In this document: positions 1,157-43,969 of the stretch, piece after piece
How positions within the stretch are numbered: position 1 is the first letter of the stretch
Layout: each line of letters starts with the position of its first letter
Assembly (NCBI GenBank): GCA_014686905.1
Contig: GCA_014686905.1_4093.1
Source of the DNA: a phage
Reading direction: 5' to 3' (one strand)
Length of the DNA stretch: 64,000 nucleotides
Notes under the pieces: generated by a model
Told to the model about the DNA's origin: nothing
What the model saw: the letters and a program-made list of their open reading frames with translations, nothing else
Databases searched by the model: none
Made by a program: the position numbers and the translations under genes

Positions 1157-1204
1157 AAAGGGTTGACTTCGGTCAGCCCTTTTTGCTATAATTATTTCAT
1201 CAAC
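1157..1204 (+). terminator. composite hairpin terminator plus promoter (GGGTTGAC-TTCG-GTCAGCCC, T-run, TATAAT); left copy of 48-bp direct repeat
   Basis: 8-bp stem with UUCG loop followed by TTTTT; TTGACT inside the stem lies 18 bp upstream of TATAAT. Confidence 0.6.
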
Positions 1205-2570: not shown

Positions 2571-2618
2571 AAAGGGTTGACTTCGGTCAGCCCTTTTTGC
2601 TATAATTATTTCATCAAC
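2571..2618 (+). terminator. composite hairpin terminator plus promoter; right copy of 48-bp direct repeat
   Basis: Identical to 1157-1204. Confidence 0.6.
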
Positions 2619-25380: not shown

Positions 25381-26457
25381 TTAAACACAAGTAGACAGGG
25401 GAAGCTCCTAGTGAACAACCTTTATGTACAGGCGAATTGTTAAAATTCAGCCTGGACAAATGCGATCACTAGGATTCTCCCCAGGCTAAACCCCGTAATC
25501 ATAGGTAGTCATAAGTAATCATATATAAACATTTATATGAGCACCGTAGAATCACAGAATGATTATATATGATTCAGTACTGATTAGTATAGACAAGAAT
25601 GCTCAAGAATGCACGGGAAGGATTCAGTACTGATATGCCACTAAGTAGGCAGAGGAAGTCTGCCGTACTTTTTAGTTTCCAAGCTCCTTTTCCATTTTTC
25701 AAATTACATCAAATGTAATCAAAAGTAATCACGCAATGATTAGTACTGAATTATTACTTTCACCTTAATTTCAATTACCCCTTTACCCTTCGGGGTAAAA
25801 TTCAATTACCCCTTGAGGCTCCAGCAAAAAGTTGGTTAGTACTCCATCCTAAATCTCGATCCTAAAAATTTTGGAGTACCTATGAAATAAAAGTTGGATC
25901 TTCGAAAGTTGAAATTTACGTTGGGACGTTTATGATTTGTGGGATATAATGATGTTTGTAGTCGGGTAGTTCTCAAGAATATCAGTACTGAATAATGAAA
26001 GAAAGCTATTGACATTATGATTCAGTACTGTATAATGTTCTACATAGAGAGATGAGTTGCTGCGAACAATTCATTTACTCTATCTCCTGTCGTGAGACAG
26101 TACAGAAAAGATAGTTCCTCCTGTGGTGGTACATCTTTTTGAACCTCATATGAAAATCGTAATAACAGTACTGATATTAACAGAATGGTGTCAGTACTGA
26201 TTTTAATCTAAAGCATTATGCCACCAGCTTGTGCTGGTGGATTCCCTCTAACAGTATTCAGTACTACATGATGGTCTTCATCCTCCTAGGGTAACATAGT
26301 GAGGGCTATGATGGCAGTACTGAATACTCCCTTTCAAAAGATAGATCTATGGTATAGTACTGACGGATTTTGGGTGTAGTTACCCTGGATGGATTTTGGG
26401 CGTAGATATGTCTAGCCCTCCAGAAGTCTGGAAGTAAAGATGGCTATCCATCTAGAC

Positions 26458-26520
26458 GGCTAAACGGCTAGATGGCTGGATGGCTAGACGTTTGGACGGC
26501 TAAACGGCTAGATGGTTACA
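26458..26520. repeat. short tandem repeat unit ACGGCTAAACGGCTAGATGG (x2, with related GGCTGGATGGCTAGACG between)
   Basis: Direct reading of 26440-26545. Confidence 0.55.
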
Positions 26521-27161
26521 CGTCTGGAAGTATAGACGGCTAAATCAAAATTTTATTTTGTTTTTCCAATAGTTCCCCTACCGCGTGGGGATAGTTTCCC
26601 CGCAGTATCTGGCGTTAGATTTTTCTGAATCTGGAATCATTATCTTATAAACTGGGGGCAATGTCAACGACCTGGACGGATATTTTTAAAAATTTTTTCA
26701 GTACTGAATTTTGGGCGTAACTATGCACCCGGTGGGCTTGAGTCTTTCTCGACTTGATGGAACTATTATACAGTACTGGAAAAATAAAGCAATACCCTGG
26801 ATGAAAAAAGTTTTAATTAATTTGCTTGCCATCCTGGGCCGGACTATGGTACTATATTTCAGTACTGAGAAAGTGCGTTTACCTGCTAGGGTGCGGGAGT
26901 GTATCCTTTTTTTATATCTTGAATTTTGGACGGATCTTCCCACCCCCTGGGGTATCCGCTTTCTCGCGTCTATGTAGTAATTATACGCTTTTTCAGGATC
27001 AAGTCAATACCTAAAAACAAAATAATTGAAAATAATTTAACGCGTTTAAACGGCCCGTAACGCCCTGGAATGATTAGAATGGTGCAAATGTATAGCTTAG
27101 GTGTATTAATGCGTTAGAATGCGTCTGAGGCCGTTTTATGGGGTGTAGTAGTGATTTGGTT

Positions 27162-27252
27162 GATTCAGTACTGAATAATAGTACTCCTATATAGAAAGAT
27201 AGTTCCCCTGGATTGATTCAGTACTGAATAATAGTACTCCTATATAGAAAGA
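27162..27252. repeat. 38-bp direct repeat GATTCAGTACTGAATAATAGTACTCCTATATAGAAAGA (x2, 15-bp spacer)
   Basis: Identical copies at 27162-27199 and 27215-27252. Confidence 0.7.
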
Positions 27253-27283
27253 AAACTATTTTAAAAGTATTTGTAGAAAGTAC

Positions 27284-27311
27284 TTGCACCGTACTGATAA
27301 AAGCGTATAAT
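27284..27311 (+). promoter_or_regulatory. sigma70-like early-type promoter (TTGCAC, 16-bp spacer, TATAAT), representative of about 35 similar promoters in 27.3-45 kb
   Basis: TACTTGCA(A/C)...GCGTATAATGTTTTACATC recurs before most small genes in this region. Confidence 0.6.
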
Positions 27312-28735: not shown

Positions 28736-28984
28736 GCAGTTTACAAATCTTTACAATTGCCGGTATTGACTTATTTTGTCAGTACTGGCATAATGTATTC
28801 ATTGGCAGATAAGCCGTAGCCCATAGGGTGCGGGAGTGTATCTATAGAAAAATTAGTTTAGTATAGTTACAATTGTGCACCCGGTGGGTTAGCTGTTGTC
28901 ATGGGGTATATTATGCCAGTACTTGATAATGCTGTCAATACTTTTTTTTACTATCCAGTACAGAAAACTATTTTTAAAAAGTAC

Positions 28985-30346: not shown

Positions 30347-30376
30347 CGGGGAGATAATAACTCCCCGTTACTTTTT
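30347..30376 (+). terminator. intrinsic terminator-like hairpin
   Basis: CGGGGAG-ATAATAA-CTCCCCG followed by T-rich tract. Confidence 0.5.
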
Positions 30377-30585
30377 CAGTACTGAATCATTTAATAGACG
30401 GATCTCGGCACCCTGTGGGTTAGTGACTGTATCGTCTTTATGTAGTAATTATGCCAGTACTGGATGCAGTTGTCAACAATTATTTTTCAAATACTTTTTA
30501 TTAAAATACTTGCTATTAGTTTTTAAACGCGTATAATGTTTTGCATAGGGGGAGCGGTTCCCCCTGGTAACTAAGGAATAAGAAA

Positions 30586-32747: not shown

Positions 32748-33071
32748 ATGGCTAAAACTATCATTAACACCGTTTCCCTGGCTGCAATCCGTGCAATCAA
32801 TGTTGACGGTAAACGTTGGACTGATTCATATGGCAATACTTATCATTCTTGTCATGTAAGCGTCGAACTGGATAACGGTTTGAATGTTCTGGCGGTTGAA
32901 TCATTTACTTATGGCTATGAAGATGCATATCAACAAACGGCGTTAGATCTATTAAAGGAATCAGTAGACGGGCTTAATACTGATGAAACCTCCCTTACTC
33001 GTTTGTGCAATGATCTTAATATCCCGTTGCATTGTACTGTACAGAATGTTAAACGCAAAAAAGATCTTTAA
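32748..33071 (+). CDS. hypothetical protein; paralog of 39149-39472
   Basis: Shared motifs RWTDSxGNTYHSC, TFTYGY, VKRKKD. Confidence 0.65.
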   Translation: MAKTIINTVSLAAIRAINVDGKRWTDSYGNTYHSCHVSVELDNGLNVLAVESFTYGYEDAYQQTALDLLKESVDGLNTDETSLTRLCNDLNIPLHCTVQNVKRKKDL

Positions 33072-33151
33072 TTAGCTTTACTTTATGCAGATACTTTGAT
33101 ATAGTGTCTGCATAGGGGAAAGAAATTAAATTAACTTAAGAGGATCGTATA

Positions 33152-33421
33152 ATGAAAAATATCAGTACTTTAATCGATGCAGGTACACATGTTCGGCGGT
33201 CTATGGTTGCAACCAGTACTACAAAACAAGTAGCGAGCGGTTATCTTGTATTTGTGCACGATGGTAAACTCCTGGAACGTTCAATCAATTTTGATGTTAA
33301 AAACAATTGCCGTTTTATTATCTTTAAGCGTGAACAATATAAAATTGATTTACCAGCAAAGCCCATTAGCGGGGCGTACAACGTGCAATCATTGTTTGAG
33401 CGTCAACCTTACACCTATTAA
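33152..33421 (+). CDS. hypothetical early protein
   Basis: SD AAGAGGA upstream. Confidence 0.55.
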   Translation: MKNISTLIDAGTHVRRSMVATSTTKQVASGYLVFVHDGKLLERSINFDVKNNCRFIIFKREQYKIDLPAKPISGAYNVQSLFERQPYTY

Positions 33422-33472
33422 TCAAAACATCGTTAGCGGTCGATTTAGGCCGCTTGTATTGGGGATTATACC

Positions 33473-33643
33473 ATGAACGTTAATCAAGTACTGAATGAGA
33501 TCGAAAGCATCATTAAACCAATGAAACGCATTGATGCTATGTTAACACCGGAAGAATGCCGCCTTTATGAGCGTTACAGTGTGGAACAAGCCCAGGAAAT
33601 GGCCCGTATCCGTCCGGTTGCCAGTACTGATAAGGCGGCGTAA
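33473..33643 (+). CDS. hypothetical small protein (56 aa)
   Basis: Hand-translated; stop overlaps next start (TAATATG). Confidence 0.45.
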   Translation: MNVNQVLNEIESIIKPMKRIDAMLTPEECRLYERYSVEQAQEMARIRPVASTDKAA

Positions 33644-33644
33644 T

Positions 33645-33854
33645 ATGCTTACTGTACAGGATAAGATCGACATCTTAAAGGTTAATATGTATGTGATTGA
33701 TGCCGTACCTGGTAAAGTATTTGCATACGATGATTCTAATCGCAGTCCGTTTTATTGCAGTCATGTAGTTGGATACGTGCCGTTGGCGTATGTTATAGAA
33801 AGAGTGGTTGATGCAGCATACAAACATTTTTTAGAAAATAATACTTGCAATTAG
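33645..33854 (+). CDS. hypothetical small protein
   Basis: Start moved to MLTVQDKIDIL; translationally coupled to upstream ORF. Confidence 0.5.
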   Translation: MLTVQDKIDILKVNMYVIDAVPGKVFAYDDSNRSPFYCSHVVGYVPLAYVIERVVDAAYKHFLENNTCN

Positions 33855-33924
33855 TTTTCAGTACTGTATAATGATTTACATCGAGAGCGGGAATAGTTCC
33901 CGCCTCACTTTTAAGGAATATGAA

Positions 33925-34071
33925 ATGAAAGCATCAAAAAAGAGTAATACTAAGAAAGCATGTTCACCTTTCGCTGGGGTATTCCCTTTACGTTTCGTTG
34001 ATGAAGTGGTTTCCTACCCGCCTGGCCTTACTCCTGAGATGGTAGAAAGTTTGCGTAAATCTAAAAAATAG
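33925..34071 (+). CDS. hypothetical small basic protein (48 aa)
   Basis: Start moved to MKASKKSN after leader hairpin and SD AAGGAA. Confidence 0.45.
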   Translation: MKASKKSNTKKACSPFAGVFPLRFVDEVVSYPPGLTPEMVESLRKSKK

Positions 34072-34152
34072 TACTTGCAATTAGTTTTTAAACGCGTATA
34101 ATGTTTTACATGAAGGGGAGAAATGATTCTCCCCAATAACAGGAGAAACAAA

Positions 34153-34305
34153 ATGAAACAATATAATGCTCGGTTTGATGTTACTATCGGTAACGGCAAA
34201 GGTCAATTCTCTTTCAGTACTCGCAAAAGTTATACAGAAAACTTCCTGCGTAATTGTGCACTGACCGCCGCTCAAATTAAACATTATTTTCAGGCTAAAA
34301 AATGA
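34153..34305 (+). CDS. hypothetical small protein (50 aa)
   Basis: Start moved to MKQYNARFD after SD AGGAGA; leader hairpin upstream. Confidence 0.45.
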   Translation: MKQYNARFDVTIGNGKGQFSFSTRKSYTENFLRNCALTAAQIKHYFQAKK

Positions 34306-34391
34306 AATCATTTGCTTACTATAGTTCTGCGGTGATCGGTGCATTGATCGCGGCGTTGTTAGTAACCTATCTATTCTTTATGGTGATTTAA
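34302..34391 (+). CDS. tiny membrane peptide (29 aa)
   Basis: ATGA overlap with upstream stop; single hydrophobic helix. Confidence 0.35.
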   Translation: MKSFAYYSSAVIGALIAALLVTYLFFMVI

Positions 34392-34535
34392 ATGAATCCA
34401 ACAGGCTTAAATTATAAAAGTTGTTCGGCGTTTACGAAAGCAAATAAAGCGAATGCACGTAAAGCGAAAGTACAGGAGTACATCAAGCAAGGCATGACGC
34501 GAAAGGCGGCGATTCTAAAAGCTAAAAATAAATGA
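34392..34535 (+). CDS. small basic protein (47 aa)
   Basis: Abuts previous stop; Lys/Ala-rich. Confidence 0.4.
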   Translation: MNPTGLNYKSCSAFTKANKANARKAKVQEYIKQGMTRKAAILKAKNK

Positions 34536-34537
34536 AA

Positions 34538-34575
34538 AAAGTGGTTGACTCCGGTCAGCCATTTTGCTATTATAT
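34538..34575 (+). terminator. composite hairpin terminator plus promoter (TGGTTGAC-TCCG-GTCAGCCA, TTTTGC, TATTAT)
   Basis: Same architecture as 1157-1204; recurs at 38211, 41480, 43738. Confidence 0.55.
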
Positions 34576-34599
34576 ATTCATTGAGAGATAGCTCACTAG

Positions 34600-34624
34600 C
34601 CCACAGGGTGCATAAGTGTATCTA
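34600..34624 (+). promoter_or_regulatory. conserved intergenic motif CCCACAGGGTGCATAAGTGTATCT
   Basis: Near-identical motif at 38269-38292, 41542-41565, 43797-43820; related copies near 36270 and 28810; reverse-orientation core near 30410 and 26727. Confidence 0.5.
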
Positions 34625-34745
34625 TTATATAAGTATTGAGTACTGAAAACTATTTTTAAAAAGTACTTGCAAACTATCTCAATAAGCGTATAATGTTTTA
34701 CATCGAAAGGGGAAACGGTTTCCCCTGGTAATAAGGAAACAAATC

Positions 34746-35087
34746 ATGACTATCTCAATTGCTCAATCTAACTTTGAAAATGAAATCATCGCCCAGGCAC
34801 TGCGTTTAAATGATGGTCGGGCCGAAATTAATTACGGTTTCAATTCAGGCGGTTGCGAAAACTATCAGTACTTTGTAACGGCTGATGGCGGTGTCCTGGG
34901 TATCAATACAGTTATTGTAAACATCCAAAAAATTAATTTCAATGATCCAGACGATAGCCAGTTTTACATCACTGGCGTAGACGTGAACTATGAGGATGAC
35001 TCACTAACTGATGATCACACTGGCGAGCGGTTAGAAAGTGCATACGGTGAAGATGATTATCAGTCCGGTCCAGAAGATTTCGAATAA
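34746..35087 (+). CDS. hypothetical acidic protein
   Basis: Promoter plus leader hairpin AGGGGAAACGGTTTCCCCT; SD AAGGAAAC. Confidence 0.6.
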   Translation: MTISIAQSNFENEIIAQALRLNDGRAEINYGFNSGGCENYQYFVTADGGVLGINTVIVNIQKINFNDPDDSQFYITGVDVNYEDDSLTDDHTGERLESAYGEDDYQSGPEDFE

Positions 35088-35182
35088 TATAAAAAATAGT
35101 TTGACAATAGATTATAGTACTGTATAATAGTTTACATCAAGGGGAGAAAAACTTCTCCCCACTAACAGAGAGAGAAAACAAA

Positions 35183-35395
35183 ATGGCTAATATCCGGTCG
35201 AAATTAAAAAATGCAAAACAAGTTTTATTTTCAGATCATGAATACTTTAATAAAGATATTACAGGAGTTACAAGTATCAAGGAAGTAAAAGAAAAAACCG
35301 GCGTTTTGTGTGATGTGCGATTAGTTGGAACATTTGGGAATAACGTGCTATATCGCTGCGGTGATTACAATTTTACACTGACTATCATTAACTAA
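35183..35395 (+). CDS. hypothetical early protein
   Basis: TTGACA promoter, leader hairpin GGGGAGAAAAACTTCTCCCC, SD AGAGAGAGAA. Confidence 0.55.
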   Translation: MANIRSKLKNAKQVLFSDHEYFNKDITGVTSIKEVKEKTGVLCDVRLVGTFGNNVLYRCGDYNFTLTIIN

Positions 35396-35407
35396 AAATA
35401 TTATCAC

Positions 35408-35446
35408 AGTACTATTGACATAGTTTGATAGTACTGACATAATAAC
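35408..35446 (+). promoter_or_regulatory. promoter module class 2 with flanking inverted repeat, copy 2 of 3
   Basis: AGTACTATTGACATAGTTTGATAGTACTGACATAATAAC. Confidence 0.55.
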
Positions 35447-35478
35447 TTTTATCAACTACACTACTAAGGAATTAAAAA

Positions 35479-35658
35479 ATGGCTATCATCGCAAAAACTG
35501 AAATCGTTGGTCTGGATTCTATCATCATGACGTTTGAAGATCAAAAAGGTATGTATGTAGTTTCCTATGGTGATTATGTTCGGGAGTATGAAACGGTAGA
35601 CGAAGCCTTTGAAAGTTATATTCGCCAGGTGAATAAAGCATACGATGACTACCGCTAA
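35479..35658 (+). CDS. hypothetical small protein (59 aa)
   Basis: SD AAGGAA; hand-translated MAIIAKTEIVGLDS... Confidence 0.45.
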   Translation: MAIIAKTEIVGLDSIIMTFEDQKGMYVVSYGDYVREYETVDEAFESYIRQVNKAYDDYR

Positions 35659-35757
35659 AATATATTACCAGTACTATTAAATCTATTGACAACGTTTGAT
35701 AGTACTGTATAATAAGTTTTATAAACAGTAGTTAACTTAACCTAAGAGAGAAACAAA

Positions 35758-35901
35758 ATGATCGCACTGGATTCATTCATCGACGCAGTACTGGCAAAAA
35801 CTGGCGAGGATCTGACCGCAGAACAATACGCGATGATCGAGCAATGTCAGCAAAACGGTAAATCGGTGAAAGATACTGTTAAGATTATCCGCAAGATGTA
35901 A
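35758..35901 (+). CDS. hypothetical small protein (47 aa)
   Basis: SD AAGAGAGAAAC; followed by hairpin. Confidence 0.45.
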   Translation: MIALDSFIDAVLAKTGEDLTAEQYAMIEQCQQNGKSVKDTVKIIRKM

Positions 35902-35907
35902 TATTAT

Positions 35908-35936
35908 AGCCCACTGGTTAACGCTGGTGGGCTTTA
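35908..35936 (+). terminator. terminator-like hairpin
   Basis: AGCCCAC-TGGTTAACGCTG-GTGGGCT, weak T tract. Confidence 0.45.
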
Positions 35937-36006
35937 ATCATTTACCCTATACAATGCCAGTACTAAACCGTTTATCTCATTAGAATGCGTTACAGGACGT
36001 TTAACA

Positions 36007-36204
36007 ATGATTAGCATGAAATCAGTACAAAAACAAATAGAAACATTATCAAAAATTAAACGTAAACAATACTCCTTAGAATATACAATCAATGGTAACT
36101 ATCATCTAATGAAAGAAAATAATTTTATAGTCATTGATGAATCATTGCAAATCATTAGTATAGTACTGAAAGCATTAATCAATGACAGAAAAAAATTAAA
36201 ATAA
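36007..36204 (+). CDS. hypothetical small protein
   Basis: 65-aa ORF; weak SD. Confidence 0.45.
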   Translation: MISMKSVQKQIETLSKIKRKQYSLEYTINGNYHLMKENNFIVIDESLQIISIVLKALINDRKKLK

Positions 36205-36295
36205 TTGTTGACATACAATGCCAGTACTGGCATAATACTTACATCAAGACGAGAACGTCACCAACCCATAGGGTGCACAAATGTAACTATATAAT

Positions 36296-36375
36296 ATCGA
36301 TCAATAAATGATCAAAAAAGTACTGGATCAATTTAGCATAAGGCGTATAATTCTGATCAATTCTTGATCAAAGGC
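36296..36375. repeat. cluster of five GATCAA (three as TGATCAA) repeats within 73 bp, overlapping a TATAAT box
   Basis: GATCAA at 36299, 36310, 36326, 36355, 36366. Confidence 0.55.
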
Positions 36376-36532
36376 AATAAACGTAGTTGAAATTATATAG
36401 AAAGTACAAAGGCGTTACCATTCGTGGTAATGCTGGGGAATATGTAGTATCATACGGTTTGAATAAAATCAGTACTAGTAGTATAATCGTAGCATTGCAG
36501 TACTATAGTATTTTTATAATGAGGTTAAAATA

Positions 36533-36790
36533 ATGGCTGTAGGATTTGCGAAGGACGGGGCCGAACAAGACGAGATTAACGCAGTGATTCAGGCCGCCGT
36601 AAACCACGCTAGAAAGCAAATTAACGCACAAATAGAATCACTGGTACATTGCCTCGACTGCGGCGATATAATCCCTGAGAAACGACGCCAGGCCGTTAAG
36701 GGATGTAAGTACTGCATAACTTGCCAGGAGGATCATGATAGTACTTTTAAACGTCCCCCGCGTAATTGTTGGCATAGATCTATGAGATAA
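36533..36790 (+). CDS. DksA/TraR-family C4 zinc-finger protein
   Basis: CLDCGDIIPEKRRQAVKGCKYCITC: two CxxC pairs with typical spacing, small size. Confidence 0.65.
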   Translation: MAVGFAKDGAEQDEINAVIQAAVNHARKQINAQIESLVHCLDCGDIIPEKRRQAVKGCKYCITCQEDHDSTFKRPPRNCWHRSMR

Positions 36791-36853
36791 AAAGTATTGA
36801 CAGTACTGAAAGATAGTGTATAATATTTTATATCTTAACTGAGGATTGAAATC

Positions 36854-37210
36854 ATGGGAATACAACATATCACGCGTACTACTGACAATGGCGAGATCAC
36901 TGGCTATCAAGTACAGGGCAAAGTAGCACAATTGCAGTACTGGTTTGTTAAACGTGGAATCATTGCACCGGATCTTGATTATGACCGTGTAGCGTTTATT
37001 GATTCTCTTTATGTTGATCCTGATAGTCGGGGCAATGGTGAAGGTAACGAATTAATGAATGCCTTTATTGATGCCGCCGATGATTCAGATTGTATCATTT
37101 TAGAATGCGATACAGGAGAAGATAACGCCTTCAATCTTAAAGAATGGTACGAAGGTTTCGGATTCGAGGTACTGATCGATAGTGAATATCCTATCATGAT
37201 TTTATCATAG
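36854..37210 (+). CDS. putative GNAT-type acetyltransferase-like protein
   Basis: LYVDPDSRGNGEGNELMNAF resembles the GNAT acetyl-CoA-binding loop; weak. Confidence 0.4.
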   Translation: MGIQHITRTTDNGEITGYQVQGKVAQLQYWFVKRGIIAPDLDYDRVAFIDSLYVDPDSRGNGEGNELMNAFIDAADDSDCIILECDTGEDNAFNLKEWYEGFGFEVLIDSEYPIMILS

Positions 37211-37288
37211 TACTTGCATTTAGTTTTCAGTACTGTTATAGTACTTACATCAAGGGGAAACATCTTCCCCTACTAAGAGGAAATAAAA

Positions 37289-37477
37289 ATGGAAAACTTA
37301 TCAAGTATTTTAGTACAAGATGATTTCGGTAATCCTGGAAGTGCTATCATTGTTCGGGGTAATAAAGCAACGTTTGTTATTGCTGGTGGACCTGTACAGC
37401 GTAGCATTAAAAATAATGCTGTTACCATTAATAATGTACGCTATCGCTTAGATAAAGAATTGATTCATAAACTTTAA
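37289..37477 (+). CDS. hypothetical early protein
   Basis: Promoter, leader hairpin GGGGAAACATCTTCCCC, SD AGAGGAAA. Confidence 0.55.
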   Translation: MENLSSILVQDDFGNPGSAIIVRGNKATFVIAGGPVQRSIKNNAVTINNVRYRLDKELIHKL

Positions 37478-37561
37478 AAAGTATTTGACAATAGATTATA
37501 GTACTGTATAATAAGTTACATGAAGGGGTGAAATGATTCTCCCCACTAAGAGGAAAGAAAA

Positions 37562-37774
37562 ATGCAAGGTCAACTAATCGTTCGTAAATGGTCTGATACT
37601 AACGAAAAACCGTGGGATGTACAATACATCGGACCGGATGGGGTATCACGTTATCAGCCTGGCGTAACGCATAGTACTGAGCAATTCGCAAACGCTCACC
37701 GCGAACGCCTGTTAGAATCCATGAAACAGGGATTCTGTGAAAAATTCATTCAAGATCATTGGCTGAAAGATTAA
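37562..37774 (+). CDS. hypothetical early protein
   Basis: TTGACA promoter, leader hairpin, SD AGAGGAAAG. Confidence 0.55.
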   Translation: MQGQLIVRKWSDTNEKPWDVQYIGPDGVSRYQPGVTHSTEQFANAHRERLLESMKQGFCEKFIQDHWLKD

Positions 37775-37791
37775 TATAAGGAGTACAGCTT

Positions 37792-37884
37792 ATGCAAATG
37801 AATCCGATGATTATTGTTTTAGCTGTACTTATGATCATTCATGCAATAGTAGAAGTATTAACGCAATCAGGAGTAATAAAATGA
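37792..37884 (+). CDS. tiny membrane peptide (30 aa)
   Basis: SD AAGGAG; single hydrophobic helix. Confidence 0.35.
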   Translation: MQMNPMIIVLAVLMIIHAIVEVLTQSGVIK

Positions 37885-38054
37885 TTCAAGTAGAATTATC
37901 AGTACTGAAAGATCTGTTTTATCGGTTAGGTACTACTGGCGAGTATCCTAAAAGTGATACCGCAAAACTTTTTGTATCACTCGACTTATGGCAACGCGAA
38001 CAATTAGTAATGTCCTGGCGTAAAGGTAAAGCAGATAGCGAGGTGAAAGCATGA
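37881..38054 (+). CDS. hypothetical small protein (57 aa)
   Basis: ATGA overlap with upstream peptide. Confidence 0.45.
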   Translation: MIQVELSVLKDLFYRLGTTGEYPKSDTAKLFVSLDLWQREQLVMSWRKGKADSEVKA

Positions 38055-38200
38055 AAGAATTCTTATTCGAAGTAGTGTTTCAAGGTGTCGGTAGTAACCA
38101 ACTGATTCGCTCAAGTGGTTACAATGTTAACCAGGCATGGAATAACATTAAACAAATGTACCCGAACGCTATCACCTATCGCAACCCGAAACAAGTTTAA
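38051..38200 (+). CDS. hypothetical small protein (49 aa)
   Basis: ATGA overlap; followed by composite terminator element. Confidence 0.45.
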   Translation: MKEFLFEVVFQGVGSNQLIRSSGYNVNQAWNNIKQMYPNAITYRNPKQV

Positions 38201-38210
38201 AAATAATTGA

Positions 38211-38250
38211 AAAAGGGATTGACTCCGGTCAGTCCCTTTGCTATTATATA
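38211..38250 (+). terminator. composite hairpin terminator plus promoter (GGGATTGAC-TCCG-GTCAGTCCC, TATTAT)
   Basis: Same architecture as 1157-1204. Confidence 0.55.
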
Positions 38251-38372
38251 CGCATAGAAACAAATCAGCCCACAGGGTGCATAAATGTATCTATTGTTTG
38301 CTGGTGGCTAGTACTGAAAACTATTTTTAAAAAAGTACTTGCATTGTACTTAGAATCAAGTATAATGTTTTA

Positions 38373-38450
38373 CATCAGGACGGGGAACGAAACAAGTAAC
38401 CCCGTTAAGTAGTCCAGGAGTAAGACATAAGAAAACCTCCCCTGATAAAA
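38373..38450 (+). ncRNA. candidate small structured RNA / leader element between tandem promoters (copy 2)
   Basis: Near-identical to 29019-29096; bracketed by two promoters. Confidence 0.3.
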
Positions 38451-38515
38451 TAGTTTGACAATAGAAAGTAAACGAGTATAATACTTACATCAACCACTGA
38501 TAAGGAAACATTAAA

Positions 38516-38791
38516 ATGCGGATTCTACTGACAGCTAACGAAATCGAACAAGTACTGACTACTAACCTGGAAGACTGGAAACGTGAAGCAGATATCCAGG
38601 CGGTTCAACGGCTTAACGATGAGTTAACGCCGGATGACTTAAGCAAGATTGTAGATCCTCAATTCTACGAAGATATCCACGACACCGCGTTAAGCGTCGA
38701 GGATGTACTAGATAAGCACTACATTGATATTGATTTGCAGGTTTACGGTCGTAAAAACTTTATCACTATTCACGACATTTACAATAATTAA
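38516..38791 (+). CDS. hypothetical acidic protein
   Basis: SD AAGGAAAC; 91-aa ORF. Confidence 0.6.
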   Translation: MRILLTANEIEQVLTTNLEDWKREADIQAVQRLNDELTPDDLSKIVDPQFYEDIHDTALSVEDVLDKHYIDIDLQVYGRKNFITIHDIYNN

Positions 38792-38877
38792 GTATTGACA
38801 AAGTATCTTAGTACTGTATAATAGTTTACATCGAGAGGGGGAATGGTTCCCCTCCTAACAAAGAGAGAGAAATAAAA

Positions 38878-39060
38878 ATGGCTAAATGCACTATCTGTAA
38901 GAAAGAAATCGTATTAGTTCCAAGTGCCCGTGAACGTGCCGCTCGGTTCGGTGGCAAACCGTCAGACTATACAAAAATGTTTACTGTCCATGCAGCTTGC
39001 CAGGTAGCAAAACGTTCACAAGAAAGCGTAGAATTAATGCGTAAACTTTCCAAAAAATAA
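38878..39060 (+). CDS. hypothetical small basic protein
   Basis: TTGACA promoter, leader hairpin GAGGGGGAATGGTTCCCCTCC, SD AGAGAGAGA. Confidence 0.55.
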   Translation: MAKCTICKKEIVLVPSARERAARFGGKPSDYTKMFTVHAACQVAKRSQESVELMRKLSKK

Positions 39061-40609: not shown

Positions 40610-40852
40610 ATGATTACTTTAGAAAAACGTATCAAAGAAACTACATCGCTGGTGGAACTGTTAACAGTACTGAAATGTAAAACAACACCATTCAGCACGC
40701 CGGACTTTATTAATATGGTTGATGTTAATGGTCGCTATCGTATCACGGTCGAACAAGGAGCGGCGAAAGTATTCAGTACTAAAAACACTAAGGAAGTGAT
40801 CCACGCCGTTAATGTTAAAAAAGTAGTTGCAATTGATAGTAAAGTACTGTAA
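40610..40852 (+). CDS. hypothetical protein
   Basis: Start moved to MITLEKRIKE after SD GGGGGAAAC; duplicated promoter block. Confidence 0.5.
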   Translation: MITLEKRIKETTSLVELLTVLKCKTTPFSTPDFINMVDVNGRYRITVEQGAAKVFSTKNTKEVIHAVNVKKVVAIDSKVL

Positions 40853-40883
40853 TATAGTTTCATTAACTCAAGGAGAACATGCA

Positions 40884-41468
40884 ATGCGTAATTATACTAA
40901 ATTCATCCGTACCCTGTCAGAAATGGAAACTAACAAAGAGATCCTTTCAGCTTGTCGGTTAGCTGGACTGGAGATCATCGGGGCGGGATCTTCCCGTATA
41001 GTTTTCGCTTTAAATGATCGGTTAGTGATTAAGGTCGCCAATTGTGATGCGGGTGTAGAACAAAATGAAACTGAATGTAAGGTATGGAATTTTTTAGACT
41101 ATGACCGCCCTCAATTGAAACAGTACTTTGCTAAAGTGCATATGCATTTAAGCGATCCTGATAATATGTTTATCGTTATGGATCGGTTGAGTACTGCAAG
41201 CAAAGGCAGTGTAAAGCACGTTAACGCGTGCAACGAATTAAAGTACAATATTAAACGTAATGCAATTGAACGCCAGCACCGCTTTGCTGATGCACTACAA
41301 CACGTTGATGATACACTGTCAACACTAACGATAAGAGATATCAGAAAACAGAATATCGGCCAGGATCGCAACGGCCTTATTAAAGTACTTGATTACGGTT
41401 TAACCCGCAATATCTGGAATCAGTACTATAAAAAGCGGGATGTAAAAGCCGTAACTATAACACGATAA
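40884..41468 (+). CDS. minimal protein-kinase-like protein
   Basis: Gly-rich loop IIGAGSSRIVF, VIKVA (VAIK-like Lys), catalytic-loop-like RDIRKQN, DFG-like DYG, in kinase order. Confidence 0.55.
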   Translation: MRNYTKFIRTLSEMETNKEILSACRLAGLEIIGAGSSRIVFALNDRLVIKVANCDAGVEQNETECKVWNFLDYDRPQLKQYFAKVHMHLSDPDNMFIVMDRLSTASKGSVKHVNACNELKYNIKRNAIERQHRFADALQHVDDTLSTLTIRDIRKQNIGQDRNGLIKVLDYGLTRNIWNQYYKKRDVKAVTITR

Positions 41469-41479
41469 AAAAGATTAAA

Positions 41480-41517
41480 AAAGGGATTGACTTCGGTCAG
41501 TCCCTTTGCTATTATAT
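41480..41517 (+). terminator. composite hairpin terminator plus promoter
   Basis: GGGATTGAC-TTCG-GTCAGTCCC, TTTGC, TATTAT. Confidence 0.55.
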
Positions 41518-41691
41518 ATTCATTGAGAGATAGCTCACTGACCCACAGGGTGCATAAATGTATCTATTATATAAGTATTCAGTACTGAAAACTATTTTTA
41601 AAAAAGTACTTGCATTGTACTTAGAATCAAGTATAATGTTTTATATCGAGAGGGGGAAATGGTTCTCCCTCAAAGAATAAGGAATAAAATC

Positions 41692-43724: not shown

Positions 43725-43737
43725 CAAAAAAGAATAA

Positions 43738-43777
43738 AAAAAGGGATTGACTCCGGTCAGTCCCTTTGCTATTATAT
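43738..43777 (+). terminator. composite hairpin terminator plus promoter
   Basis: GGGATTGAC-TCCG-GTCAGTCCC, TTTGC, TATTAT. Confidence 0.55.
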
Positions 43778-43969
43778 ACGCATAGACAAAAACTAGCCCA
43801 CTGGGTGCAGGAGTGTATCTAAAATATATAGTTAATAACGGTGAGTAACTATCTGCTGGTGGGGTGAAAACTATTAATAAAAAAGTATTGACAAAGTATA
43901 TCAGTACTGCAATAATGTATCTCGTAGGGCGGCAATGGTGCGACGGCCCACAAAGTTAGGAGATTCAAA

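Follow-up and report, generated by a model that had tools for sequence, protein, structure and literature searches.

The locus at nt 34538–34624 of the sequence analysed here (a 64,000-nt stretch of phage DNA, hereafter the window) carries in succession a terminator-like hairpin with an embedded -35 box, a TATTAT box and a conserved motif. When the sequence alone was read, these were taken as one composite module, present six times and followed in four cases by the motif, which was considered a candidate binding site for a transcription factor or a processing site. The locus therefore raises the question of whether hairpin, promoter and motif belong together, whether the motif operates as DNA or as RNA, and what it may do.

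The window comprises the early region and the direct terminal repeat (DTR) of an Asteriusvirus (Rak2-like) jumbo coliphage, the nearest relative being fEgEco12. By megablast, nt 33000–39000 are 91–96% identical to Asteriusvirus (121Q/PBECO4/Rak2-like) jumbo coliphages, and the 401 nt around the module at 34538 are 99.3% identical to fEgEco12. The termini of the latter phage have been verified experimentally, with direct terminal repeats of 20,993 bp (PMC13070987), and a comparison of coordinates places the physical left end at about nt 25,622 of the window and the DTR, the pre-early region of the phage, at about nt 25,622–46,040 (about 21 kb). In fEgEco12 the first 1,688 nt of the genome are non-coding, and the annotated genes of the repeat all lie on the plus strand. 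Pfam searches with 20 ORFs of the repeat region returned only DksA/TraR, GNAT and a weak kinase match, and no RNA-related domain. Rak2-like jumbo phages are candidates for phage therapy, and their terminal repeats of about 20 kb consist almost wholly of small genes of unknown role. Rak2-like relatives transcribe with the host RNA polymerase (PMC5259590), on which PA5oct likewise depends (PMC7318152). Phage CBB has both sigma70-type and T4-late-type promoters, with UP-like elements accompanying early promoters in or near the terminal repeat (PMC5259590).

The fusions of a hairpin with a -35 box are six in number, as first counted: TTGAC-N4-GTCA occurs exactly six times in the window (nt 1163, 2577, 34545, 38219, 41487 and 43747), compared to 0.71 times in shuffled sequences. 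A hairpin scan recovered terminator-like 12-pair hairpins at 34538, 38212, 41480 and 43740, each followed by TTTGCTATTAT, and these four right-hand hairpins are overlapped by promoters of the form TTGACT-17-TATTAT (34545–73, 38219–47, 41487–515 and 43747–75), each scoring 10/12 and flagged for a TG before the -10 box. The units are as follows, those with a downstream RNA element being labelled P1.

34538–34573, plus strand: PeSL-type terminator/promoter P1, with the hairpin AAAGTGGTTGAC-TCCG-GTCAGCCATTTT at 34538–34565, the -35 box TTGACT (34545–50) within the stem, and the -10 box TATTAT at 34568–73.
38210–38247, plus strand: PeSL-type terminator/promoter P1 (hairpin and promoter scans).
41477–41515, plus strand: PeSL-type terminator/promoter P1 (hairpin and promoter scans).
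43736–43775, plus strand: PeSL-type terminator/promoter P1 (hairpin and promoter scans).
1157–1192, plus strand: PeSL-type terminator/promoter without RNA element, with a Shine-Dalgarno site and ATG directly 3'.
2571–2606, plus strand: PeSL-type terminator/promoter without RNA element, with a Shine-Dalgarno site and ATG directly 3'.

Judged by its sequence, the hairpin with its embedded -35 box is a PeSL-type terminator/promoter cassette, of a kind already described in T4-like phages. In the PeSL (promoter-early stem-loop) units of T4-type phages a strong sigma70 promoter is joined to a terminator stem-loop, which may extend over the -35 box; the units recur between small ORFans and have been implicated in cassette shuffling (PMC2839356, PMC4122927). 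The likeness extends to the near-consensus sigma70 early promoter joined to a terminator-like stem-loop, to its repetition among small ORFans in plastic early regions, and to the stem itself, as the A3-4G3-loop-C3T3-4 of the phage nt-1 PeSL (PMC2839356, PMC4122927) resembles the AAAGGG...CCCTTT of the window hairpins. The proposal that termination and initiation share one element fits both the sequence and the published class, in which the stem-loop may overlap the -35 box, and may be kept as a prediction. At the 3' side, published PeSLs terminate in the Shine-Dalgarno sequence and start codon of the small gene behind them, as do the window copies at 1157 and 2571. Unlike them, the other four of the six window copies are followed by a structured RNA module and a second promoter (P2), and RNA modules are also found behind promoters without a stem-loop.

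The motif occurs well above chance. The degenerate 24-mer has six matches against 0.00 expected, four of them without mismatch (34600, 38269, 41542 and 43797) and two with 2–3 mismatches (28820 and 36265), while its 12-nt core, CCCACNGGGTGC, has nine matches on the two strands when up to one mismatch is allowed, against 0.14 expected. The reverse-orientation copies claimed near 26727 and 30410 were located at 26725–36 and 30408–19, and a further reverse core match, beyond the two originally named, lies at 28877–88. With a covariance model (CM) the count rises to 11 copies in the window (7 on the plus and 4 on the minus strand), all within the DTR of about 21 kb. The CM contributed a diverged minus-strand copy at 26924–26972, and gave no hit in the 43 kb of window sequence that flank the DTR. 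The view of the motif as a fixed part of the hairpin-promoter does not hold, as it is missing at 1163 and 2577, and at least five copies follow ordinary promoters; hairpin-promoter and motif are therefore separable parts. Each copy belongs to a module of about 50 nt, made up of a 5' hairpin (hp1), a linker of about 4 nt and an invariant R-CCC-ANA-GGGUGC, whose GGGU has a possible partner on either side (mini-hairpin M upstream, hairpin hp2 downstream). The copies and their promoters are listed below.

34579–34627, plus strand: RNA element copy (CM 60.3 bits, E 3e-12), with predicted start A34580, hp1 TGAG-AGATAG-CTCA (34582–95), linker CTAG, CCCACA (34600–05), hp2 GGGTGCA-TAAG-TGTATCT (34606–23), and an alternative mini-hairpin M, G34599-CCC-ACA-GGG-T34609.
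38253–38296, plus strand: RNA element copy (CM 36.9 bits), with a degenerate hp1 stem and the A-rich loop sequence retained.
41521–41569, plus strand: RNA element copy (CM 61.4 bits).
43781–43824, plus strand: RNA element copy (CM 32 bits).
36208–36292, plus strand: ordinary promoter TTGACA-17-CATAAT (36208–36) and RNA element (36244–92; hp1 GACG-AGAA-CGTC).
28766–28847, plus strand: promoter (28766–94) and RNA element (28800–47), plus member of a convergent pair.
28861–28938, minus strand: promoter (28938–28910) and RNA element (28898–28861), minus member of the same pair, the two motif starts being 68 nt apart.
30347–30476, minus strand: stand-alone antisense unit without ORF, predicted RNA of about 105 nt, comprising a promoter (30476–30448), the element (30440–30392), CAGTACTG and an intrinsic terminator (30367–30347).
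26709–26790, minus strand: leftward promoter and RNA element (26757–26709), in the non-coding left-terminal 1.7 kb.
26667–26639, leftward: P2-like promoter beyond the element at 26709.
26924–27007, minus strand: leftward promoter (27007–26980) and diverged element (26972–26924), minus member of a second convergent pair.
26826–26914, plus strand: degenerate copy (element about 26860–26914), partner of the copy at 26924–72; carries CCTGCTAGGGTGCGGGAGTGTATCC.

The position of the module relative to its promoter is conserved. Of the two findings that would have spoken against the observation, a motif no commoner than by chance and a variable spacing to promoters, neither was therefore made. In the window, every copy begins 1–2 nt past the predicted start of a near-consensus sigma70 promoter. 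Over 60 copies from six phages, a conserved A lies 7–9 nt after the -10 hexamer in 58, and is exactly the seventh nucleotide in 45; the upstream promoter scores at least 9/12 in 54. With the conserved A at a fixed distance from the -10 box, the element would form the 5' end of the predicted primary transcript. The second promoter claimed for the four right-hand motif copies was found after each of them.

34667–34694, plus strand: P2, TTGCAA-16-TATAAT, with an UP-like A/T tract and flanking AGTACT; downstream lie a 5' hairpin GGGGAAACGGTTTCCCC (34709–25), a Shine-Dalgarno site and ATG at 34746.
38339–38366, plus strand: P2 after the motif copy at 38269.
41610–41637, plus strand: P2 after the motif copy at 41542.
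43888–43916, plus strand: P2 after the motif copy at 43797.

Repeat analysis showed the P2 at 34667 to be one member of a standard early cassette present in 27 copies, which consists of AAAGTACTTGCAA-N16-TATAAT, ACATCGAG, a G+C-rich 5' hairpin, a Shine-Dalgarno site and a small ORF. These cassettes form a head-to-tail array with few terminators. All 27 have the same promoter and the same initial transcribed 'ACAUCGAG' as P1 and its element, which carry this promoter and initial transcribed sequence but have neither a Shine-Dalgarno site nor an ORF. P1 with its element thus looks like a cassette that has an RNA as its cargo.

The comparison of copies gives a detailed picture of the fold. The linker is (C/U)U(A/G)R, usually CUAA or CUAG. 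Hairpin hp1 starts at +3 and has a stem of 4–5 bp and a purine-rich loop (GAGAAA, GCGAAA, AGAACAA or AGAUAA); its stems vary yet remain paired (TGAG/CTCA, GACG/CGTC, AGTC/GACT, GGC/GCC, CCAC/GTGG, TCCA/TGGA, GGAG/CTCC, CGAA/TTCG), with more than 15 different stem sequences counted by eye. Over 74 copies from eight phage loci, counted partly in CM-fitted alignments, which lean towards the model, all four hp1 pairs change on both sides, in 27–32 of about 65 cells each, and use UA, AU, GC and CG. In hp1, 93% of cells are paired, and in hp2 89%, compared to 31–52% in slid controls, and the hp1 covariation score was reached by no column shuffle. Hairpin hp2 is formed by GGGUGC(A) with a downstream (U)GYRYCY, giving a stem of 5–7 bp with three G-U pairs in the consensus. 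Its variation is one-sided, so that the column-shuffle control is uninformative for it, but the 3' arm shows 53 transitions and 7 transversions, against 55 and 48 in the unpaired loop columns (Fisher p = 3e-6), and these transitions leave the 3' arm able to pair with the invariant GGGUG (G-U/G-C and U-A/U-G). Pairing likewise survives the few substitutions seen in the 5' arm, namely G2>A and G4>A, both opposite U, and C5>U, opposite A or G.

A second pairing involves the same bases. The mini-hairpin M (R-CCC-ANA-GGG-U) is the consensus given by RNAalifold itself, and 98% of its cells are paired; the invariant U3 faces a purine at position -7 in 68/73 copies, CCU..AGG double changes are seen twice independently, and the variant CCC-UAUA-GGG of Yersinia and Serratia alters only the length of the loop. 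As M and hp2 both require GGGU, they are mutually exclusive. Their constrained energies are similar (mean -5.0 kcal/mol for M, -4.6 for hp2), and differ by no more than 1.5 kcal/mol in 29/57 copies. Because both pairings are independently supported, the core is described here as a bistable segment and neither fold is chosen. Single-sequence folds of the module are not unusually stable (z = -0.4 to -1.8). The consensus of the sequence after hp2 is AUWAUWUAWW; a -10-like TANNNT immediately follows hp2 in 36 of 57 copies, and AGTACT lies within 40 nt of it in 37 of 57.

These data bear directly on the proposed binding site for a transcription factor; such a duplex-DNA operator would be recognised independently of strand and would usually show dyad or direct-repeat symmetry. 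Dyad symmetry is absent from the motif, which in every copy lies in the sense strand of the predicted transcript, near position +21, and variation in its 3' half keeps RNA G-U pairing on that strand only; these three features do not support a binding site on duplex DNA. Since G-U pairs become A-C mismatches on the opposite strand, and since orientation is locked to the promoter, the element appears to act at the RNA level rather than as a duplex-DNA operator, and the 24-mer is most likely the core of a small folded RNA rather than a DNA switch. A processing site, the other early suggestion, is an RNA-level idea and is possible. That the module is a real RNA structure, under selection across the Rak2-like clade, is well supported by the comparative sequence data.

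The distribution of the module is narrow. Its 41-nt core was found in 68 records, all of them Rak2-like jumbo phages, with hosts in eight genera (Escherichia, Klebsiella, Salmonella, Erwinia, Yersinia, Serratia, Cronobacter and Pectobacterium); beyond these, it matched by chance at 19 sites of 17 nt within genes of Bacteroides phages. Where a record contains the two terminal repeats, the core is found in 8–10 places, compared to 4–5 in the others, about a twofold difference. The CM returned 74 hits in eight phage loci; it gave 10 hits in the fEgEco12 repeat, and none in 225 kb of unrelated contigs that had given chance matches. An IMG/VR search with CCCAYNGGGTG-N11-TCTAT gave 30 loci, which were rejected as chance matches, being without promoter context and none scoring with the CM. 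The element is mostly unannotated, with 'none' in most of the rows listed and otherwise a terminal-repeat feature or 'hypothetical protein'. Rfam 15 gave no hits in the whole window at gathering thresholds, and in a scan of nt 34520–34760 by E-value no family covered the module, the nearest being a minus-strand snoRNA (E = 4.2, far below threshold). A tRNA/tmRNA search also found none. A blastn search of the module against 5,426 E. coli genomes gave no match, and thus no host or prophage homologue at a sensitivity to which seed matches of about 12 nt are invisible. A full-text literature search for the 12-mer returned only unrelated primer-type hits. Judged by Rfam 15, the annotation of phage records and the literature that could be searched, the RNA module appears to be undescribed.

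Copies fall into three classes of genomic context. In class A (about 30 copies) the module lies in sense orientation and is followed by 30–60 nt of A/T-rich sequence, a strong P2 and then a gene. Class B consists of 11 convergent pairs (about 22 copies), in which units of promoter and element face each other; their motif starts are mostly 68 nt apart, and the other pairs, at 79–90 nt, include those nearest the left end in Yersinia phage fHe-Yen9-03 and Serratia phage BF. In fHe-Yen9-03, BF and CBB the first convergent pair precedes all annotated genes and stands at the left end of the record. Class C comprises about 7 antisense singles, in which the element is followed by CAGUACUG and then an intrinsic terminator or hairpin, with no ORF; nt 30476–30347 of the window is an example. 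About half of all copies have no gene of their own, being convergent pairs or antisense singles with a terminator, and 3–4 are located in the non-coding 1.7 kb with which the genome begins. A Fur box is present between convergent copies in other genera; it is absent from the window, and was set aside. The convergent pairs, the restriction to the terminal repeat, the covarying 5' hairpin and the alternative CCC/GGG pairing had all escaped the sequence-only reading.

The interpretation preferred here, plausible but held tentatively, is that the RNA itself may be the product, a gene-less RNA cassette that offers a docking site for a partner. Promoter and module together would be a gene-less version of the standard early cassette, i.e. 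an RNA gene, and its RNA would be made in large amounts straight after DNA entry, from 10–11 copies per repeat and about 20 per virion genome. The combination of an invariant 12-mer and a freely covarying hairpin, with constant spacing between them, is what marks a docking site, and these 12 nt could be bound by a host or phage protein. High copy number and promoter strength suggest that the many copies would either titrate the partner or mark the transcripts that bear the module, and alternation between M and hp2 would set the exposure of the docking site. The gene-less convergent and antisense copies, and those in the non-coding left end, are in favour of an RNA gene; in the related phage PA5oct the terminal repeat is transcribed early and two abundant ncRNAs arise there (PMC7318152). 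Start sites, RNA ends and abundance are predicted values for the module. Most sense copies, on the other hand, have no terminator of their own and so must read into P2 and the genes beyond, with which a role in cis is equally compatible. Nor did a candidate partner protein emerge from the search of the window for arginine-rich, N-like proteins or from Pfam with the 20 repeat-region ORFs.

Such a cis role is the basis of the main rival, which we regard as unlikely: a leader that modifies the RNA polymerase transcribing it, with or without a factor, in the manner of put or nut sites, so that polymerases started at P1 resist pausing and termination at the early PeSL terminators and those started at P2 do not. 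The put RNA of HK022 is, like the module, a two-stem-loop RNA at the start of early sigma70 transcripts, made by host RNA polymerase and with a -10-like element nearby (PMC9378689); it suppresses pausing and termination by binding the zinc-binding domain of the beta' subunit (PMC9378689). The two hairpins of the module, about 50 nt beginning at +3 of an early sigma70 transcript in sense orientation, match this arrangement, putL being about 70 nt with two stem-loops just downstream of PL (PMC9378689). The four right-hand copies stand directly after a terminator and head units of 2–4 kb that run to the next terminator, and the -10-like TANNNT found after hp2 (36/57) recalls the sigma-dependent pause element proposed for putL. 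However, put RNAs, of about 70 nt with a triplex and bulges, occur twice per genome at operon heads (PMC9378689), whereas the module is about 50 nt, has another conserved sequence, is present 10–11 times per repeat and is often gene-less or convergent. About half of the copies have no downstream gene to serve, and with a strong P2 after every sense copy, and nearly every gene having its own promoter, the need for read-through is not obvious.

What recalls the nut sites of lambda and rrn is a small hairpin whose purine-rich loop is GNRA-like and, 3' of it, a conserved single-stranded box, both near a promoter. The boxA of nut is CGCUCUUA or UGCUCUUUAACAA, while the box of the module is CUAACCCACA followed by GGGUGC; its linker and box read (C/U)U(A/G)R-CCCANA, and no boxA-like sequence was found. 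The boxB loop is a GNRA-like pentaloop; those of the module are purine-rich hexa- and heptaloops (GAGAAA, GCGAAA, AGAACAA). The window encodes no arginine-rich, N-like protein: an N-terminal arginine-rich motif was found in none of its ORFs, and the only ORF to have 5 or more Arg within 15 residues has them at the C-terminus. Also comparable are ncRNA001 and ncRNA002 of the distantly related PA5oct, which are abundant non-coding transcripts of the early terminal repeat of a related jumbo phage (PMC7318152), but these are 236 and 451 nt (PMC7318152), compared to about 50 nt for the module, and they are not homologous to it; the CM finds no copy in the 16 kb that contains them.

Another explanation, which seems quite improbable, is that the module is a 5' stabiliser, a processing signal, or both, whereby the 5'-terminal hairpin shields P1 transcripts from decay that depends on the 5' end, and RNase E cuts in the A/U-rich stretch past hp2, to free the module or to determine the half-life of the mRNA. 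The start of hp1 only 2 nt from the predicted 5' end and the AUWAUWUAWW after hp2 are in keeping with this, and all 27 standard cassettes (27/27) begin with a 5' hairpin, which makes such hairpins a general design feature. A stem alone would suffice for stabilisation, however, so that the invariant 12 nt shared by eight genera, the fixed 4-nt linker and the alternative pairings are left unexplained, and gene-less copies have no message to stabilise.

A leader attenuator, in which hp2 is a weak terminator or pause hairpin, M the antiterminator and the choice is set by a factor bound to hp1 and M, is very unlikely in spite of the mutually exclusive pairings of nearly equal predicted energy. The degenerate plus copy has hp2 (26888–26914) followed by T7, recovered in the terminator scan as a genuine terminator-like hairpin, and in CBB the copy at 14859 has U5 after hp2. 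Within the window, this copy at 26888–26914 is the only one that combines a G+C-rich hairpin with a U-tract as in an intrinsic terminator; most copies have alternating A/U after hp2 instead of a U-tract, and the stem is weak (about -4 to -6 kcal/mol). A purely DNA-level element (an operator, a PeSL-type recombination hotspot or a promoter-primed replication origin, with an RNA structure that has no role) can be largely set aside, for although the modules are repeated at 60–90% identity within the repeat, lie near homology breakpoints of related phages, are followed by A/T-rich DNA at each copy and, as convergent pairs, form inverted repeats of 12–16 bp with a fixed 68-nt offset near the genome end, the G-U-rich pairing and transition-only variation make sense only in sense-strand RNA, dyad symmetry is lacking, orientation and distance are locked to the transcription start, and covarying conservation across genera with only about 25–30% ANI argues against simple homogenisation.

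The reading of the module as an RNA gene can be taken one step further, to a claim that is rather doubtful at present: that it may represent a new class of phage regulatory RNA, acting on the host within the first minutes of infection. It could be a leader that reprograms RNA polymerase, independently of protein or assisted by a factor, and so an analogue of put at 10 or more promoters, some of them antisense; alternatively, its many copies could serve as a decoy by which a host RNA-binding protein or a defence nuclease is neutralised. In either case the invariant 12-mer would be exposed or hidden by a bistable CCC/GGGU/YRYCY switch. A structured RNA that is conserved, multi-copy and made from the DNA that is transcribed first would be a new player in host take-over or the control of early transcription, and as one invariant 12-mer is present in all copies, a single probe (against CCCACAGGGUGC) or antisense oligomer would reach every one of them.

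Several other candidates for the motif were considered and rejected. The stretch CATAAATG might be read as a T4-late promoter, but corresponds to the variable loop of hp2 (GGAGA, CGAGA, AUAAA). The same variability speaks against a promoter for a single-subunit RNA polymerase, and the literature on this clade describes use of the host enzyme (PMC5259590, PMC7318152). A site for CsrA (GGA) or RegB (GGAG) in the hp2 loop is present in only about half of the copies. The triloop is ANA, with ACA in 30 and AUA in 19 of 57 copies, and so is not a MazF ACA site. A mini-ORF, starting from the Shine-Dalgarno-like GGGUG and A/GUG, has no conserved start codon (position 12 is G in 31/57), and a pairing of the hp1 loop with the hp2 arm (AGAUA:UAUCU) is possible only with loops of the AGAUA type, roughly 7 of about 57 by eye.

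With these units the idea of the PeSL cassette is extended to a new phage clade, and to cassettes with an RNA in place of an ORF as cargo. Recombination or gene conversion between cassettes may account for part of the high identity that copies show within a genome. Among related phages, breakpoints of alignment and homology fall near modules.

A standard early cassette is present in 27 copies between nt 25991 and 44396 (e.g. 34657-34753). In it, AAAGTACTTGCAA-N16-TATAAT is followed by ACATCGAG, then by a 5' hairpin rich in G+C, and finally by a small ORF with a Shine-Dalgarno site in front of it. The hairpin stems differ in sequence between copies (GGGGAAAC.., AGCGGGAA.., GGGGAGAA..). With this layout, nearly every early mRNA would be predicted to carry a stable hairpin at its 5' end.

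The whole window contains 255 copies of the palindrome AGTACT (20.8 expected), with a density of 6.2 per kb in the ~21-kb direct terminal repeat and 2.2-3.5 per kb outside it, relative to an expectation of 0.32 per kb. Examples are found at nt 34639-44, 34662-67 and 36223-28. It is often fused with the -35 (AGTACTTGCAA), and the promoter spacer is another frequent location (CCAGTACTGGCATAAT). AGTACT is a candidate target of a phage protein that binds or modifies DNA.

Chi sites (GCTGGTGG) number 12 in the window (0.55 expected); nine are on the plus strand, all of them within the terminal repeat:

26233-40, 32047, 35923, 37382, 38300, 40648, 42055, 43632, 43855: Chi, plus strand
26221-28, 14508, 14763: Chi, minus strand

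These sites may shield the genome ends from RecBCD. The sites at 26221-28 (minus) and 26233-40 (plus) form a back-to-back pair, separated from the physical left end by about 600 nt. In fEgEco12, the ~1.7 kb directly after this end is non-coding, and the corresponding region (nt ~25622-27310) contains leftward promoters, 3-4 copies of the RNA element (the structured module predicted at the start of early transcripts), the Chi pair, and a hairpin, CAGTACTG...CAGTACTG, at 26166-26199.

Some RNA-element copies present an A/GUG from the loop of the downstream hairpin (hp2), 5 nt 3' of an SD-like GGGUG. The resulting mini-ORFs have 3-8 codons (MYLLYKY*, MYLLFAGG*), with one 40-codon case at 41558, and the start codon is not conserved among the RNA-element copies:

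34617-34640, 38279-38305, 41558-41680: mini-ORFs starting in the hp2 loop

Pfam matches among the pre-early ORFs were to a DksA/TraR C4 zinc finger (E = 1e-10), a GNAT acetyltransferase and, weakly, a protein kinase (E = 2e-3), for which the fEgEco12 annotation gives Ser/Thr kinase:

36533-36790, 36854-37210, 40827-41468: pre-early ORFs with Pfam matches

The products of these ORFs may modify RNAP or RNases of the host.

A Fur box with three or fewer mismatches was not found in the E. coli phage window. Fur-box-like palindromes do occur in the spacer separating convergent RNA-element copies in four other phages:

~2000-2020: Salmonella phage PHA46 (locus L035)
~13505-25: RaK2 (L001)
~335-355: Yersinia phage (L002)
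~1025-45: Serratia phage BF (L034)

Counted by eye, two examples, GATAATGATAATCATTTAC and GAGAATGATAATGATTCTC, agree with the Fur consensus at 17/19 and 16/19 positions, respectively.
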